Positions 10,732-57,555 of a stretch of DNA of 57,555 nt are shown here, piece by piece. The stretch comes from a virus (Duplodnaviria; Caudoviricetes). A model generated the notes under the pieces. The model searched no databases, was not told where the DNA came from, and saw only the letters and a list, made by a program, of their open reading frames with translations. The position numbers and the translations under genes are program-made. The DNA is taken from IMG/VR virus record IMGVR_UViG_3300044251_000011, positions 1 through 57,555 of that record; one strand, written 5' to 3'. Within the stretch, counting starts at the first letter, position 1; every line of letters starts with the position of its first letter.

Positions 10732-11471
10732 GCACCATTCCTACCTTCCTCCTCACGGAGTCGTCTCGCGGAGCGTACCCGGGACGGTCCCGACCGAAGC
10801 GGTCTACGCCGTGCCAGCATTGGATCAGTAAGGGCCTGGCCGGTCCAATTGATCTCCAGCGCCGAGCCCTCGTGGTGCCGCCGGGCCACCCGCTCCCGGG
10901 CCTTGTGCTTGGTCAGCGAGGGGATCGGGAGGTGGTCCACCAGGGACGGCCACGTGTACCAGACATCGTGGCCGCGCCGCTCGGCCCAGCCCGCCACCCG
11001 CATATCGTCCGGCACCCCGGCGCGCGTCTCGGCGTACTGGATCATGTCCCCGATCAGCTTGACGGGGAGCGCGATACAGACGCCCCACATCAGTTTCTGG
11101 CTCCGGACCCAGGTGGCCCCCGCCGTGTCGGCGGCGCGCGCCATCGCCTCCCAGCGGATCGGCACGTTGCGGCCGGTGCCCAGGTACGGCGAGACCACGG
11201 CGTCCGGCGGGACGAACGTCAGAGCGCGCTCCAGCCCGGCCAGGAGATCGGCGCACGGAACCGCGTCGTCCTGGATCAGGACGTGCCAGTCCGCGTCCGG
11301 GTCGGCCAGCTCCCAGGCCCGGCGCGCGGTCCGCCAGACTCGATCGCCGCTCCCCGAGGGCGGACCCTCGTCGTCCCAGCCGATCGCCACCGGCCGGTCC
11401 AGGGCGGCCATCAGCTCGCGCACCCGGTCCGCCCGGTCCGGGTGCGCCATGATGCTGGCGGAGAGTTTCAC
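10728..11471 (-). CDS. Glycosyltransferase (GT-A fold)
   Basis: IMAHPDR, WHVLIQDDA, DDMR, WPSLVDH. Confidence 0.7.
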   Translation of the reverse strand: MKLSASIMAHPDRADRVRELMAALDRPVAIGWDDEGPPSGSGDRVWRTARRAWELADPDADWHVLIQDDAVPCADLLAGLERALTFVPPDAVVSPYLGTGRNVPIRWEAMARAADTAGATWVRSQKLMWGVCIALPVKLIGDMIQYAETRAGVPDDMRVAGWAERRGHDVWYTWPSLVDHLPIPSLTKHKARERVARRHHEGSALEINWTGQALTDPMLARRRPLRSGPSRVRSARRLREEEGRNGA

Positions 11472-13300
11472 CGGCCGTCCGCGAGGGCCTGGAGGATCAG
11501 GTCCCGCTTGTCCTTGCGGACGCCCAGCACGATCCCCCGGTGCTTGGCGAGCGCCTTCAGCGTCGGGATCGACAGCTCGGAGATCGGCTGGCCCACGGTG
11601 GCCTCGACCACCAGGGCATCGTTCAGCCCGACCCGGGTCAGGTCCCCGTGGTGCCCGTTGCTTGACGTGTCACTGTCAAGCGCGGCGGCCGACTCTCGGA
11701 GAGCGGCCACGCCCTCGGGGTCCACGCGCTCCCACTCGGCCTCCAGCGTCGCCTTGTCCTCCGGCACCTCGGGACCGGCGGCCACCTGGCCGCCCACGGC
11801 CGGGTACGGGGAGGGGTGGACGCCCTCGCTCGTGATGGCGGTCGCCGTGCCGGTCGGCTTCAGCTTGGGCTCCTCGGTCGTCACCAGCCGGGTGACGGCC
11901 AGCCGGTCCGCGTGGATCTCGAACTCCTCCAGGAACCCCTCGGCCACCAGCTCCTCCAGCGCCTCGCGGACGCCGGGCCAGTCCGGGTGGTCCAGGTCGT
12001 CCACGGCGATGGTCGCGCCGGGGGCCAGGTGCGGAGCCCAGACCTCGATGTCCTGGCGCGCGCCCTCCTTGCTGTGGTCGCCGTCCACGAACAGGAGCCC
12101 GACCTGGCGGCCGGACCAGTCGGCGGCCACCTCGTGCGAGAAGGCGTGAACCAGGTCGATCTTGTCCTTGTACCCGAACGAGTCCACCCAGTAGGCGGCC
12201 CAGGTGCGCGAGTCGGCCTCGGTGAACGGCGGGCCGTACGTGTTGCCCGGGGCGTCCCACGCGTCGATGGCGGTCACGTGCGCGCTGTTGCCCAGCCCCG
12301 CACCCCAGGCGAGTTGCAGCGCGGTCCGGCCCTGGAACACGCCGATCTCCACGATCTCCTGGTCCGCCGGGACCTGGATCGCCAGATCGGCCAGGGTCAC
12401 CATCACATCGTCCGGCGTGGCCGCCCGGACGTTCTTGAACTGGATCGGCGGCCGGGGGCTCCGCTTCTCGGCCAGGCGGCGCGAGGTCGGGCCGGAGCGC
12501 TCCACGCGGCGCGGCGCGGAGCCAGCCACGCGCGGCCGGGCGGCCGGGCTCGGGGTGCTCGTCGGTTCGGTCACTTCAGGCCGTCCTCTCCGTAGGTGGC
12601 GGATCTCCGCCACGTCGGTCCGGAACACGTCGCCGTGTCGCCAGCTCTCGTACGCGCGCCGGTCCCGCTTGAACTGGTCCCGGTGGTTCACCCGCTGGTA
12701 CTGGGCGTCGGTCTCAGCCTTGCCCACGATCGGGTGCATGTGCTCCACCCGCACCTCGGGGAGGAAGCGGAGAGCACCGGCCGCGCCGAACATCTCCATG
12801 ATCGAGTTGTCGCAGTACATGTGCTCCACGTCGGCTGGGACCATCCGGCCCAGCGCGGCCACCACGTCCGAGGTCACGGCCCACTCGGTGCTGAGGTTCT
12901 TCCCCTGGTACCCGTCGTCGCTGTAGACCATCCCGCTCCCCAGCTCGCGGAGGACGGTCAGGTACCGCTCGGCCCAGCCGATCGTCCGGGGGAGGTGGTC
13001 GTCACCAGCGAACCCGAGGGCGAACCAGCCAGCGGCCAGCGCGGCGGCGGCCTCGTTCAGCTTGTGGACCATCGGGACGTGGTGGTCCACCTCGTACGTC
13101 TTGATCAGCGCGTCGCCGGTGTCCGGGTGCCGGGTCTCCTCGACCAGGGCCAGGTACCCGGGGTACTCCGGGTCGTCCTTGTCGATGACCAGCACCATGT
13201 CCGCGCGGTCCCAGGCGTTCGTGAAGTCCCAGGCGCTGATCACCTTGCGCACGTTGCCGGGGCGGCCCCGGGTCGGGATCAGGACAGCGAGATCACGCAT
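11468..13300 (-). CDS. GT2-like glycosyltransferase fused to class I SAM methyltransferase, with C-terminal Rho_N/HeH-like helix pair
   Basis: VLIPTRGRP, GDDHLPRT, HMYCDN, VEHMHP; VEIGVFQGRT, LLFVDGDHS, LAPGATIAVDD; SELSIPTLKALAK..GI. Confidence 0.8.
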   Translation of the reverse strand: MRDLAVLIPTRGRPGNVRKVISAWDFTNAWDRADMVLVIDKDDPEYPGYLALVEETRHPDTGDALIKTYEVDHHVPMVHKLNEAAAALAAGWFALGFAGDDHLPRTIGWAERYLTVLRELGSGMVYSDDGYQGKNLSTEWAVTSDVVAALGRMVPADVEHMYCDNSIMEMFGAAGALRFLPEVRVEHMHPIVGKAETDAQYQRVNHRDQFKRDRRAYESWRHGDVFRTDVAEIRHLRRGRPEVTEPTSTPSPAARPRVAGSAPRRVERSGPTSRRLAEKRSPRPPIQFKNVRAATPDDVMVTLADLAIQVPADQEIVEIGVFQGRTALQLAWGAGLGNSAHVTAIDAWDAPGNTYGPPFTEADSRTWAAYWVDSFGYKDKIDLVHAFSHEVAADWSGRQVGLLFVDGDHSKEGARQDIEVWAPHLAPGATIAVDDLDHPDWPGVREALEELVAEGFLEEFEIHADRLAVTRLVTTEEPKLKPTGTATAITSEGVHPSPYPAVGGQVAAGPEVPEDKATLEAEWERVDPEGVAALRESAAALDSDTSSNGHHGDLTRVGLNDALVVEATVGQPISELSIPTLKALAKHRGIVLGVRKDKRDLILQALADGR

Positions 13301-52932: not shown

Positions 52933-52997
52933 CGTCTCGCCTCTCGGTGTCAGGTTCTCCGGGGCCGCGCCGGTCGGCGCGGCCCCCTCCGTCGTGC

Positions 52998-55900
52998 CTA
53001 CTTCTCGTAGCAACGGGACCAGTCGGTCCCGGTCTTGCTCACGTCCGCCAGGATGGGCACCCCGCGCCACTCGAAACTCAGCGCCTCGACCACGGCCCGG
53101 CCGACCTCCTCCGCCTCGGCCACCGGCACCGAGAACACGATCTCGTCGTGGATCTGGGCGCGCAGCATGGGGAGGATGCGCCGGTCCAGGCGGAGGAGCC
53201 CGGTCATCATGATGTCGCGTGCCGCCCCCTGGCCCATCAGCGCCGGACCCTGGGTGTGGGCGCGCTGGGGGTCGGCCCGCATCATCCGGCCGAACCCGTT
53301 GTCCAGGAGCTGGCCGCTCTCGGCCACGGCCCGTACCTCGGTCTGCCACTCGACCAGCCGGGGGAACTTCTCCCGCATCGAGAGGTCGAACTGGCGGACC
53401 AGCTCGGGCGCGATGTCCTCGCCCTCGCTGATGGCCCGGATGCCCCGGCCGTAGTTCCAGCCGTGACCGATGGGCTTGGCGATCTCGCGCTTACTGCGGT
53501 CCCCGAACAGCTCCTCCGCGATCTCGGCGTGGGGGTCCTCGGACTTCAACATCTCGATGTACGCGAGATCCTGGGACAGCCCGGCCACGGCCCGCATATC
53601 GACCTGGCTCAGGTCGGCGGACACCAGCACCTCGCCGGGGTCGGGCAGGAACACGGCCCGCTCCACGTGGCGGCCCCCGCGCTTGCCGAACACGGTCAGC
53701 CCCGGGCGGGTGACGGACCACCGGCCAGTCGCCTGGTCGAACCCGATCTTGGGGTGGACCCGGCCGTCCGGACCCATGTGATCCATCGCGGTCTGGTAGA
53801 CCGAGCGCGCGCCCACGATCCGGTGGACGTGCATGGCGATCTCCTGGACCCGCGCGAGGTGGCCGAACTCGGCCCAGAGGTGGGCCATGTGGTCGCCGGA
53901 CACCTGGAACTCGCCGGTGGGCGTCCGCCAGAAGAACCCGGGGGACACCCCGGCCTCGGCCAGCGCGATCTCCAGCGCCTCCTTGCCGCCCTTGGTCGCC
54001 AGCGGCGAGGCGTACGCCTTGCCCTTGGGGTCGGCCAGCGGGACACCGGCGTTCTCGGCCAGCCAGCCCACGCTCGTGGCCTTGCTCTCGTTGACCTGGG
54101 TCACCCGCTCGGTGAGGAGCGGCTGGTCCACCAGGAACCCGTTGTGGCGGATCTGGGCGGCCAGGGCGGCCACCCGGTGCTCGCGGGCCAGGTAGTCCGG
54201 CACCGTCCCGCCCAGGCCCTCCAGGAGCCGCGCGTGGAGCCGCCTCGACAGCTCCACGTCCTGGACCATGTAGGTCTGGAAGCTGGTCGCGTCGGCGGCC
54301 CGCTCCTCGTCGGGGTCGGCCAGGTCCACCGGGATCTCACCCCAGCCGCCGTACTTCTTGGCGAGCGGCTTGGACAGATCGGTGTACTTCTCCCCGAGGC
54401 CCTGGCTCACGGCCAGCGTGCCCAGGTCGTACTTGCGCTTCTGGTCCACGCCGTGCTCGCGGGCCATCGGCGGGTCCAGGAACCGGGCGGCCAGCAGGCC
54501 ATCGAACAGGCGGCCGTCCTGGGCCAGGTCGTGAACCTCGTCCATCGTCATGGCCCCGGCCCGCACCAAGGCGGGGAGGTCGAACGCCACGATGTTGTGG
54601 CCGGTGATCGTCGCGCCCTGGCGGATACGGGCGGCCACGTCCTCGGCCACCGTGGAGCCGCCGAGCGCCAGCACCTCGCGGCCGTCGTGGGCCACCGCGC
54701 CGATCCGGACGTACTCCCGGCCCGGGGTCGTGTAGAGGTCGTCCGCGTCGCCGGTCTCCAGGTCGAACGTCGCCGTGTCCACAGCCTCGTCCACAGGCTG
54801 TGGACCCACGGCGGGCTCGGCCAGCTCGCGGTCTGCCACCTGGCTGTCTGCCTCCTCGCCGGTTGACACCTCAGTGTCAACCACGTCCGCCCCGCCGTGG
54901 CACTCGCTGGAGTGGCAGTACACCCGCTCGTCACGCGGGCACCGGCACACGTCGTCCGGGCCGTCCTGGGGCTCCTGGGGCTCGGTGCCGGGGGCCGGGG
55001 GAAGATCCTCGCCGGACTGGAACACGCGCCAGATCGAGACGTGGCCGTGCGCGCCGCCGGACCGCTCCACCCAGAACTCGCCGTACCGGCGGCCCCGGAG
55101 CCGGGAGTACGCCTCGCCCAGGTTCTTGCCGTAGCTCTTGTCCGTGGGGTCGTCCAGCTTGGGGGGAGCGAGGAACCCGGCCGGGTCGGCCATCGCTCGC
55201 GCCTTCACCTCGGCCGTACGGAACGGCTCCTCCCCGAACGTGGCCCGGAGCCAGCCGAGGTGGCCCGCCCAATACTGGGTGTCGAAGTCGCTCTCCGAGC
55301 GCCACACCTTCAGGTTGTCCAGGAACCCGGTCAGCCCGGCCACCTCGATGATCCCGCCCACGATCCGCTCCCAGACCTCGAACGAGCCGAACGAGACGCC
55401 CCGCTTGGGCCGGGGCTGGCCCTGGGCGAACCAGGCTCGGACCAAGGTCAGGATGGCGGTCATCAGCTCGGCCCGGTGCTTACGGGTCCAGCTCCCCAGG
55501 TCGAGCCCGGACTGGCCGGGGTGCCGGAAGGTCTCGGCCTTGCGGTCCTGCGGGTTGGCGTACGGCGGCCGGAGCGCGATCTGGTAGACGCGCCGGGTCA
55601 GGTCGCCCTTGACTTGGACCTGGTTGCCGAGCGAGATCCAGGTGATGACGTTCGGGAAGTTCGCCATCGTGGAGACGCCCAGGATGCGGTCCTGCCAGGT
55701 GCTCGCCGTGAGGGCCTGGGCCAGCGGCGCGCCCTCGATCGTGTGCGCCTCATCGAACACGAAGAACTCCGCGCCGGTGCGGAACGCGGCCGTGATCTGC
55801 TTGCGGAGTTCGTCCGGATCGGGAACCCAGTTCATCGGCTCGGCGGCCGTGCCCGTGTAGACCGTGAGGATCTGGTCCGCCAGGAGGTTCTTCCCCACGC

Positions 55901-57335
55901 CCATCTGGAGACCGTCGATCACGGCCAGCGGGACCTTGGGCACCATGCCCCGGATGGCCGGGGTCACGATCAGCGCCATCACGTTGGCGCGCGCCGTGTC
56001 GTCCATCAGCGGGAAGTCGCCCAGCCAGTCCTCCAGGATGAACCGGCGCGCCGCGTCGATCTCCTCGGCGCTCGGGTCCTCCGGCACCTTCAGCCCATCG
56101 AACATTGGGTCCGGGATCAGCATGGTCCGCGTGGCCTCGTCGTACCCGGCCTCGGTGACCACGGTCCCGTCCGGCCGCACGAACGGCGCGTGGCTGATCC
56201 GGTCCAGCGGGGAGAAGGAGTCCGCGCGGCTGATCACGGCGGCCATCGTGTTGGGGTCCGGCCAGGCGAACGAGTAGGTGGTGCCGTTCGCGCCCTCGTT
56301 CTTGTTGACCGTCCGCGCGGTCTCGGCCACCAGGTCGTTGAACGAGCCCTTGTCCACCGGGTGCATGGCGTCGCCCTTGCGGCGCGAGATCACCCCGCCG
56401 TGACAGAACAGCTCGGTGGCGTTCCACTTCTCCAGGAGCGCGCCGGTCAGCGCGTTGATCACATCCAGCCGGTCCTCGTTGACCACGATCGTGGCCCGGC
56501 CGTCCTTCTCCCCCTGGTCCCCGCCCGGGGCCGGGGCCTTCTTCTTGGTCGGCACCTTGTCGGCGGGCTTGCTCTTGGCCGTGGTCACGATCCGCTCCAG
56601 GTATGCAGCACGCCGGGTCTCCTGTCGTCCGGCCAGCACATCGTCCAGGCCGCTCTTGTCGCCACCGCTCAGGCGGCCGAACAGAACCTTGGTGGCACCT
56701 TCCATCTCCAGCGCCTGGCCCAGCGCGACCCCGGCCGCGTAGACCTCGGGGTTGGTGGCCGCGTCCGCGTCCAGGATCACCACGACCTCGCGGCCGTCAA
56801 CGGCCACCAGGTCCGGGATCGGGGAGCCGTCAAGCTGCCACATCCGGCACCCCGCGATGCCGTACACGCCGACCCCGGCCGGTGCGTACGAGGCGGCGGC
56901 CAGCGCTTGCTTGGTGCCCTCCACGATCAGGACCCGCTCGGCCGATTCGACCGGGCGCACGGCCCACAGGACCGGGGTCATCTCCCGGCGGAACACGTAC
57001 TTGCGGGGCTTCTTGCCGGTGCCGGTGGTCGGCTCGTCGGGCCGGACCTGGTACTCCGTCCGGCCGTCCTCGGCTGTCCAGGGGAACAGGATGGCCGGGA
57101 AGTTCGCCCAGTTCACCCACTGGCCGCCCAGGTCTGCCACGTCGTCCGAGCTGAGCAGCGAGCGAACGCCGAGCGAACGAGCCAGGTCCAAGTCCACAGC
57201 CTGGGCCGCCAGGAACGAGGCGTGCTCCGGGGTCAGCGTGTTATCGTCGCCCACAGTTCGGTCTTCCTTTCGAGGTTGATCTCCTCCGGGCCGGTCCTCC
57301 AGGGACCGGCCCGGCTCCGTCTCCAGGGTGGTCAC
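52998..57335 (-). CDS. Primase (TOPRIM-like) - helicase/NTPase - family A DNA polymerase fusion
   Basis: LIVEGTKQ and VVILDADA; GVGKNLL, FVFDE, SLGN, DLTRR; TFDLET, GHNIVAFDLP, YMVQDV; ATGRWS, SADLSQVDMR, AKPIGHGWNYG, QIHDEIV. Confidence 0.9.
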   Translation of the reverse strand: MTTLETEPGRSLEDRPGGDQPRKEDRTVGDDNTLTPEHASFLAAQAVDLDLARSLGVRSLLSSDDVADLGGQWVNWANFPAILFPWTAEDGRTEYQVRPDEPTTGTGKKPRKYVFRREMTPVLWAVRPVESAERVLIVEGTKQALAAASYAPAGVGVYGIAGCRMWQLDGSPIPDLVAVDGREVVVILDADAATNPEVYAAGVALGQALEMEGATKVLFGRLSGGDKSGLDDVLAGRQETRRAAYLERIVTTAKSKPADKVPTKKKAPAPGGDQGEKDGRATIVVNEDRLDVINALTGALLEKWNATELFCHGGVISRRKGDAMHPVDKGSFNDLVAETARTVNKNEGANGTTYSFAWPDPNTMAAVISRADSFSPLDRISHAPFVRPDGTVVTEAGYDEATRTMLIPDPMFDGLKVPEDPSAEEIDAARRFILEDWLGDFPLMDDTARANVMALIVTPAIRGMVPKVPLAVIDGLQMGVGKNLLADQILTVYTGTAAEPMNWVPDPDELRKQITAAFRTGAEFFVFDEAHTIEGAPLAQALTASTWQDRILGVSTMANFPNVITWISLGNQVQVKGDLTRRVYQIALRPPYANPQDRKAETFRHPGQSGLDLGSWTRKHRAELMTAILTLVRAWFAQGQPRPKRGVSFGSFEVWERIVGGIIEVAGLTGFLDNLKVWRSESDFDTQYWAGHLGWLRATFGEEPFRTAEVKARAMADPAGFLAPPKLDDPTDKSYGKNLGEAYSRLRGRRYGEFWVERSGGAHGHVSIWRVFQSGEDLPPAPGTEPQEPQDGPDDVCRCPRDERVYCHSSECHGGADVVDTEVSTGEEADSQVADRELAEPAVGPQPVDEAVDTATFDLETGDADDLYTTPGREYVRIGAVAHDGREVLALGGSTVAEDVAARIRQGATITGHNIVAFDLPALVRAGAMTMDEVHDLAQDGRLFDGLLAARFLDPPMAREHGVDQKRKYDLGTLAVSQGLGEKYTDLSKPLAKKYGGWGEIPVDLADPDEERAADATSFQTYMVQDVELSRRLHARLLEGLGGTVPDYLAREHRVAALAAQIRHNGFLVDQPLLTERVTQVNESKATSVGWLAENAGVPLADPKGKAYASPLATKGGKEALEIALAEAGVSPGFFWRTPTGEFQVSGDHMAHLWAEFGHLARVQEIAMHVHRIVGARSVYQTAMDHMGPDGRVHPKIGFDQATGRWSVTRPGLTVFGKRGGRHVERAVFLPDPGEVLVSADLSQVDMRAVAGLSQDLAYIEMLKSEDPHAEIAEELFGDRSKREIAKPIGHGWNYGRGIRAISEGEDIAPELVRQFDLSMREKFPRLVEWQTEVRAVAESGQLLDNGFGRMMRADPQRAHTQGPALMGQGAARDIMMTGLLRLDRRILPMLRAQIHDEIVFSVPVAEAEEVGRAVVEALSFEWRGVPILADVSKTGTDWSRCYEK

Positions 57336-57428
57336 GCTCGGGCCACCAGCGCGGACCGCACGGCCGCCAGCGTGCCGCCCATGATCACGGTGTATCCGTC
57401 CAGGTCGGCCGAGCCCCGGGCCGCCATC

Positions 57429-57555
57429 GCACAGTCCACCGGCGGCCGGTTCACCAGGCGGCGGACCTCAGCCAGCGTGGCCTCCAGCGCCATGATCCGG
57501 TCATGGTCGGTCTTGGTGGTCGAGCGCAACAGGTCCCGCTCGGCCTCAGCCTCGG
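57429..57555. repeat. Terminal direct repeat, second copy
   Basis: Identical to 1-127. Confidence 0.95.

Follow-up and report, generated by a model that had tools for sequence, protein, structure and literature searches.

A putative phage replicative enzyme joining a DnaG-type primase, an SF3 helicase and a proofreading family A DNA polymerase in a single chain

The closest described counterpart of a phage protein that would prime, unwind and copy DNA as a single chain is Pas55 of Actinoplanes phage phiAsp2 (YP_024841.1, 1415 amino acids (aa)), which is named just 'putative DNA polymerase' in GenBank and whose published description is that of a DnaG primase and PolA joined to a superfamily 3 (SF3) helicase (Kazlauskas, Krupovic and Venclovas 2016, PMC4889955). 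The sections of that study concerned with such proteins name two helicase-primase-polymerase single polypeptides, Pas55 and gp55 of Lactococcus phage 1706, the latter likewise carrying an SF3 helicase but combined with an AEP-type primase and a family B polymerase; they also report that SF3 helicases are paired with DnaG-type primases in only 14% of cases, and that in 94% of cases the viral primase domain precedes the helicase in the chain (PMC4889955). Here we describe a computational analysis of IMG/VR record IMGVR_UViG_3300044251_000011 (hereafter the window), a complete soil-phage record of 57,555 bp with direct terminal repeats and a GC content of ~70%, whose minus strand carries an open reading frame (ORF) at 52998-57335. 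This ORF very probably encodes a phage replicative enzyme in one chain, composed of a DnaG-type primase, an SF3 helicase, an acidic and proline-rich tether and a proofreading family A DNA polymerase.

The window protein and Pas55 align in a single piece over residues 5-1445 at 79% identity, and the phiAsp2 surroundings share 83% nucleotide identity with the window over 81% of 12.5 kb, with the same domain order and the same gene neighbourhood, while the sequence of the linker differs between the two proteins. By its sequence, the window protein is an ortholog of Pas55, and its architecture is not new, having been in print since 2016 for this 79%-identical ortholog. Other known systems share part of this organization. 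Specifically, P4 gp-alpha combines an SF3 (D5-like) helicase with an N-terminal DnaG-type primase, as does the window protein (PMC4889955, in the part treating such pairs), and the SaPI5/PriRep1-type primase-helicases are likewise SF3 D5-like with an N-terminal primase, SaPI5 being the best structural match to the helicase of the window protein (Z 14.2). Unlike the window protein, the P4 gp-alpha, SaPI5 and PriRep1 proteins have no attached polymerase. Similarly, a TOPRIM primase and a hexameric helicase work with a proofreading PolA in T7 gp4/gp5 and in apicoplast Prex, where the three form one polypeptide (PMC10201439).

The minus strand from 52998 to 57335 forms one open frame of 1445 codons with zero internal stops, which confirms the single unbroken 1445-aa ORF claimed in an earlier note on this DNA, and every motif listed in that note is found at its place in the translation. 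For the primase and helicase these are EGTKQ at 139, DAD at 189-191, GVGKNLL at 479, FVFDEA at 525, N571 and RR at 581-582; for the exonuclease and polymerase they are FDLETG at 857, GHNIVAFD at 912, YMVQD at 1022, SADLSQ at 1239, AKPIGHGWNYG at 1286 and IHDE at 1395. The GC content of the three codon positions (0.71/0.47/0.95) is the coding pattern expected of a real gene in a high-GC (70%) genome. Two plus-strand ORFs overlying the fusion gene (52947-54866 and 54897-57554) failed the codon-position GC filter, have translations rich in Arg, Gly, Pro and His, and were rejected. The start of the gene is placed at codon 28, a GTG, on the basis of homolog starts, 20 of 22 of which fall within one residue of this codon (the remaining two start later), and of the Shine-Dalgarno-like GAAAGGAAG (57263-57271) found 8 nt ahead of it. 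None of the 22 aligned homologs reaches into the 27-codon upstream extension. The true gene is thus probably 52998-57254 on the minus strand, encoding 1418 aa and ending in a stop codon at 52998-53000, and the in-frame extension (57255-57335, minus strand) is probably untranslated.

That the long frame and the fusion are real, and do not result from assembly error, is confirmed by two lines of evidence, full-length relatives and linker indels that keep the frame. Firstly, a search of a 5.8-billion-protein collection with the fusion protein returned 442 matches at E <=1e-3, the best 120 of which are 1391-1506 aa long and 64-93% identical, many of them being encoded on contigs 50-63 kb long; 116 of these 120 align with 97% or more of the query, and all 120 contain PF00476. 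Secondly, the region 54300-55600, which includes the linker, was compared with contigs (not raw reads) of four public runs. In run X1, a possible source of the record, two overlapping contigs are identical to the window across this region. A 30,955-bp contig of run X3, from another study, spans the whole of it, differing by 73 substitutions and having a linker lengthened by 6 letters. The linker is likewise 6 letters longer in run X23 and is 15 letters shorter in run X2, and these two runs share a compensating +1/-1 pair near 55195-55200. In the contigs of X3, X23 and X2, all net changes are multiples of three. The rival possibility that faulty assembly or sequencing has turned two genes into one frame draws on the origin of the record in a metagenome assembly and on the existence of relatives with split forms; it is nonetheless exceedingly improbable, as the isolated phage phiAsp2 also encodes the protein in one gene, full length is reached by 116 of the 120 best independent relatives, and the frame of the linker is kept in contigs of three further runs from three other studies. 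An assembly artefact in the linker is, on these relatives and in-frame contig indels, ruled out. Consistent with a real fusion, 34 diverse fused proteins with 29-59% identity to the query retain the catalytic residues of each of the four modules, either without exception or in at least 90% of the sequences; these 34 form the conservation set used below.

The N-terminal module (aa 28-275; 56511-57254, minus strand) consists of an N-terminal subdomain followed by a TOPRIM/DUF3854 domain (aa 135-237), of which Pfam sees only DUF3854. Searches of PDB by sequence with the primase-helicase part yielded yebR as best match (E 0.59), and a PDB profile search with 43 relatives of this part returned only small TOPRIM proteins (E 0.2-0.28); these searches being uninformative, fold prediction was needed for both primase and helicase. 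An AlphaFold2 model of the primase module, built from an alignment with 42 relatives, has a predicted local distance difference test (pLDDT) score of 94. Foldseek comparison of this model with PDB matched the polymerase domains of the Aquifex, B. subtilis, S. aureus, M. tuberculosis and E. coli DnaG proteins, as well as T4 gp61, T7 gp4 and Twinkle, with all matches at E 7e-8 to 1e-2. In VIA-align, ranks 1-23 are all primase domains of DnaG, T7 gp4, T4 gp61 or Twinkle, aligned over 179-219 residues, that is, the whole model, at Z 12.2-16.1; the best match is the Aquifex primase (Z 16.1, 212 residues aligned, chain residues 112-362), and B. subtilis DnaG reaches Z 15.9. Proteins with TOPRIM only, topoisomerase I and RNase M5 among them, follow at ranks 24-32 with Z <=10.5 and 101-123 residues aligned. 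Since the Z scores and aligned span of the primases lie well above those of TOPRIM-only proteins, the module is, as modelled, a full DnaG-type catalytic domain and not a bare TOPRIM, which gives the TOPRIM-like primase of the earlier note a DnaG-type fold. Residues Q96, Y113, E139, G140, D189, D191, D231 and D232 are invariant in the 34 diverse fused proteins, and the TOPRIM acidic residues among them (E139, D189/D191 and D231/D232) are invariant also in a 43-sequence set. The K112-Y113 pair upstream of TOPRIM is presumably equivalent to DnaG motif III.

DnaG-type primases normally use a zinc-binding domain, and this domain is absent from the window protein: there is no Cys in aa 1-162, the first being C163, the structural match to the Aquifex primase begins past the zinc domain of that protein, and a Zn ribbon is present in just 1 of 43 relatives. 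This absence lends some weight to the alternative that the TOPRIM/DUF3854 module is not a primase at all, and is instead a relic or a domain that acts as a nuclease, nicks the origin or binds DNA, with priming carried out by the host or by another phage protein. In addition, TOPRIM folds occur in nucleases and topoisomerases, as the lower VIA ranks illustrate, and DUF3854 has been described, in the portion of the literature on cyanobacterial plasmids cited here, as a TOPRIM-related domain of plasmid Rep proteins, and for one of these, CyRepA2, its authors point out that replication by rolling circle is primer-free (PMC10079941). The alternative is nevertheless unlikely, given that the entire DnaG polymerase domain is matched, that the acidic triads and the K112-Y113 pair are invariant or nearly so, and that viruses usually carry the primase on the N-terminal side of the replicative helicase, as in the 94% of cases cited above (PMC4889955).

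The second module (aa 276-771; 55023-56510, minus strand) comprises a collar, an AAA+ core and a C-terminal domain. An AlphaFold2 model based on an alignment with 51 relatives (pLDDT 93.5) was matched by Foldseek, at E 1e-7 to 1e-5 and probability 1.00, to the NrS-1 CTR, African swine fever virus PrimPol, monkeypox virus E5, vaccinia D5, PriRep1 and the SaPI5 primase-helicase. VIA-align likewise placed the D5-like helicases first, at Z 14.2-11.8 over 283-371 aligned residues, with SaPI5 (Z 14.2, 313 residues), D5 (Z 13.7, 315) and E5 (Z 13.7, 320) among them; MCM proteins come next at Z ~11, their match being confined to the AAA+ core. No variation is seen across the 34 fused proteins at G481-K482 of Walker A, D528-E529 of Walker B, N571 or R581-R582. 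By pattern, N571 is probably motif C and R581/R582 probably contain the arginine finger. On the predicted fold, the P-loop module is a D5/P4-alpha-like SF3 (AAA+) helicase and belongs to another superfamily than T7 gp4 and Twinkle, in agreement with the suggestion, made before any fold was predicted, of a helicase-like NTPase unlike the T7/Twinkle type.

This assignment bears on the relationship between the phage fusion and apicoplast Prex. The helicase of Prex, like those of T7 gp4 and Twinkle, belongs to superfamily 4, is RecA-like and moves 5'->3', while that of the window protein is positively assigned to SF3/AAA+ instead. In those parts of the 2023 reclassification of PolA that concern the apicoplast, the fusion is treated as a polyprotein that also contains a TOPRIM primase and a helicase, and its PolA is placed in the 'Hot Spring 1' cluster; the PolA of the window protein resembles those of actinophages, of which the 'D29-like' cluster is listed with 'no known partners', and the same parts of the paper make no mention of a primase-helicase-PolA phage fusion (PMC10201439). 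The different helicase superfamily and the different PolA group together argue that the fusion arose independently of Prex. Such independence had been proposed in the earlier note, and it is now supported by the SF3 assignment and not by mere absence from matches.

The C-terminal part of the protein comprises a putative 3'-5' proofreading exonuclease (aa 857-1060; 54156-54767, minus strand) and a family A DNA polymerase (aa 1061-1445; 53001-54155, minus strand). Exonucleases of the DEDDy type are defined by the motifs Exo I (DxE), Exo II (Nx(2-3)(F/Y)D) and Exo III (YxxxD). The corresponding residues, D858/E860 in Exo I, N914/D919 in Exo II and Y1022/D1026 in Exo III, are all invariant in 23 closer sequences; in the 34 diverse fused relatives D919 and D1026 are invariant, and D858, E860 and Y1022 are conserved in at least 90%. 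The free-standing PolA of Streptomyces phage phiSAJS1, which aligns with residues 857-1443 at 32% identity, starts 5 residues ahead of Exo I. ESM Atlas neighbours of the exonuclease part carry PF01612 or PF13482, a finding that serves as a lead only. The exonuclease assignment thus draws upon motifs, alignment to phage PolAs and this lead. Identification of the polymerase is more direct: PF00476 (DNA_pol_A) is matched over aa 1174-1440 with 95.4 bits against a cut-off of 34.3 and is present in 34/34 fused relatives, and the match to Klenow and Taq has an E-value of 7.5e-15 with a single sequence and 6.6e-26 with a profile, the profile alignment to Klenow running from the Exo III region onward. 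The residues of motif A (D1241), motif B (R1283, K1287 and Y1295) and motif C (H1396-D1397-E1398) align with those of Klenow and are invariant in the 34 sequences. The Exo I-III and polymerase A/B/C motifs read at the outset from the letters are therefore present, and they are conserved among relatives.

One position within motif B differs from the better-known polymerases. The site of Klenow Phe762, which is Tyr in T7, governs dideoxynucleotide discrimination. In the window protein it is occupied by His1291 (53463-53465), and His is likewise found in phiAsp2 Pas55, phiSAJS1 gp56 and the PolA of Mycobacterium phage prophiT46-3, as well as in 148 of 150 long relatives with a recognisable motif B. 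Where this position is discussed in the 2023 reclassification, it is as Phe, Tyr or Leu, and not as His (PMC10201439).

Helicase and exonuclease are joined by a linker of 85 aa (aa 772-856; 54768-55022, minus strand), 32 of which are Pro, Glu or Asp. Both its length, 78-169 aa across 23 aligned sequences, and its sequence are hypervariable, and it is not conserved. A CxCx7CHx3CH motif at aa 797-813 (54897-54947) was considered as a stand-in for the missing primase zinc finger; only 4 of 23 aligned relatives carry it, so that it does not characterise the family, and the idea was dropped. In one relative, P0084, this Cys/His module is nearly identical despite an overall identity of 68%, which suggests that linker modules are exchanged between relatives. 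A different, acidic module, NE[HY]x[ED]AR... (for example PENEHAEARGPAPEDTDGEGHDEVRGP), is conserved in 16 of 23 relatives, where it could be a docking peptide; the window protein is without it.

The character of the linker is relevant to a rival account in which the long ORF is translated and the enzymes work apart, the linker being cut or PolA being made from an internal start, such that the fusion would amount to expression at a fixed ratio. An unconserved segment of 78-169 aa rich in Pro, Glu and Asp is likely exposed, and close relatives function as two adjacent genes. A conceivable internal start for a free PolA is the in-frame GTG codon 833 (54837-54839), which lies 11 nt past a GAGGAGG; this sequence, however, derives from Gly-Glu-Glu codons in a non-conserved region, and a spacing of 11 nt is long. 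No protease site or protease partner was identified in support of cleavage, and this account is quite improbable, even though the apicoplast analogue is called a polyprotein in the section of the PolA reclassification noted above (PMC10201439).

When aa 28-790 were used as a HMMER query against all 1.84 billion representatives of a clustered collection, 18,987 matched at E <=1e-3, and 5,182 of these reached E <=1e-30. Among the best 150 representatives (clustered at 50% identity), 37 have primase, helicase and PolA, five have helicase and PolA and are N-terminally cut, 75 have primase and helicase only (the split form), 30 have a helicase with another or no N-terminus, and three have the primase only. 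The fusion is thus common, being carried by at least 37 clusters among these best 150, from soil metagenomes and actinobacterial prophages. In a FastTree phylogeny of the primase-helicase part (113 rows), fused and unfused proteins are intermixed; the label has to change 22 times, and in 16 instances well-supported branches leave no alternative. Twenty changes remain after removal of 17 'split' rows that are shorter than 740 aa or have an incomplete helicase. A count of fusion and fission events on this tree was given up, since partial gene calls on short contigs mimic split genes and inflate such counts. By sequence comparison, then, fused and split states are interleaved among close relatives.

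Genomic loci and cultured phages display a similar mixture. In bacterial genomes, the match spans nearly the whole query in the 21 loci examined out of 51 related loci, and in five of these 21 it forms a single-frame fusion (four in Corynebacterium or Corynebacteriaceae and one labelled Synechococcus), while 15 have two or more frames and one is fragmented. The locus labelled Synechococcus (L011:2698-7131, titled Synechococcus sp. MIT S9507 chromosome) has a single frame of 1477 codons matching aa 34-1444 at 37% identity; Synechococcus is an odd host for a family otherwise found in Actinomycetota, and a prophage, transfer and contamination are the candidate explanations. At two further loci, L020:3001-8756 (Cryobacterium tagatosivorans) and L022:3001-8663 (Corynebacterium pollutisoli), the match spans ~5.7 kb and not ~4.2 kb, the extra DNA inside or ahead of the PolA part possibly being an inserted mobile gene or an intein. 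In a cultured-phage collection with 1501 matching records, the fusion is found only in the two phiAsp2 records, and a split pair is found in 15 records, all of Streptomyces phages, among the matches listed. These pairs (phiSAJS1 gp57/gp56, TP1604, YDN12, Mischief19 and others) have the same gene order and orientation as the modules of the window protein, in two genes ~100 bp apart versus one here; their primase is 39% identical over aa 53-273 and their PolA 32% over aa 857-1443, with the same motif B His. In phiSAJS1 gp57 ('DNA primase/helicase', L002:3980-6205) the primase domain alone is common to both proteins, and the C-terminal 500 aa have no BLASTP similarity to the window protein. The dissimilar helicase part of gp57 points to exchange of helicase modules as well, related primases being joined to different helicases.

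Besides the missing zinc domain, several points weigh against the description of this protein as one working enzyme. PF01612, the PolA exonuclease model, has no match in the window protein at E <=1 and matches only 5 of 34 fused relatives. The Foldseek TM-scores of the helicase are low (0.32-0.43), the reason being that a multi-domain model is compared. Across 54800-55050, where the earlier note would have had the linker checked by reads, the frame is kept in contigs, which is support at the level of assembly and not of reads. Split forms are commonplace (75 of 150 representatives and 15 of 21 genome loci), and since they are as common as the fused forms, covalent linkage is not required for function. 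Lastly, a search of the literature found no biochemical study or measured activity of any family member.

The surroundings of the gene extend this picture. A gene at 315-2021 on the minus strand, just upstream of the fusion gene across the record ends, encodes a 568-aa SF2 helicase (ResIII and Helicase_C; phrog_16 'DNA helicase') homologous to phiAsp2 Pas53, and the phage therefore has a second helicase. The term 'all-in-one replisome' applied by the earlier note is accordingly apt for the four modules in one frame and not for a whole replisome. No 5' nuclease domain, clamp or single-stranded DNA-binding protein forms part of the fusion protein, and primers have to be removed by some other factor. 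A homolog of Pas54, situated between the genes for the SF2 helicase and the fusion protein, appears to cross the record ends (57332-57555 and 1-314), consistent with a circularly permuted assembly with terminal repeats. Farther away, a gene at 11468-13300 on the minus strand encodes a protein of 610 aa, residues 317-435 of which form a Methyltransf_24 domain.

How such a protein might act can be outlined from the families to which its modules belong, from which oligomeric state, polarity and coupling are all drawn. Ring formation and 3'->5' movement on the leading-strand template are properties of SF3 helicases. By analogy, the SF3 module of the window protein would form a ring that travels 3'->5' along this template, the primase domains on its N-terminal face would prime the displaced strand, and tethered copies of PolA would extend both the leading strand and the primers. 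The covalent tether would thereby stand in for the non-covalent helicase-polymerase contact of split systems and raise the concentration of polymerase at the fork. Self-priming replication by the fusion protein, and primer synthesis without a zinc domain, are what we infer on these grounds. A bolder proposal, which we regard as possible although doubtful, is that a ring of about six subunits constitutes a self-sufficient minimal replisome, in which six tethered proofreading polymerases and six zinc-finger-less DnaG-type primases, mounted on an SF3 motor, would initiate and perform coupled leading- and lagging-strand synthesis on plain DNA without primers, clamp or loader. Were this the case, the frequent switching between fused and split states would mark a helicase-polymerase interface made or broken by one frameshift.

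The window protein represents a computationally described kind of protein, known here from its sequence and predicted folds, and is of moderate practical interest and low surprise. To the published architecture, the present analysis adds fold-level evidence for the primase and the helicase, the missing zinc domain, the size and diversity of the family, the alternation of fused and split forms, and the His at the Klenow Phe762 position of the polymerase. If it does unwind, prime, copy and proofread, the protein would be a compact model for the coupling of replisome parts and a candidate enzyme for primer-free isothermal DNA amplification. Moreover, because fused and split forms alternate among close relatives within a large and diverse family, this family provides a natural test set for the contribution of covalent helicase-polymerase coupling.

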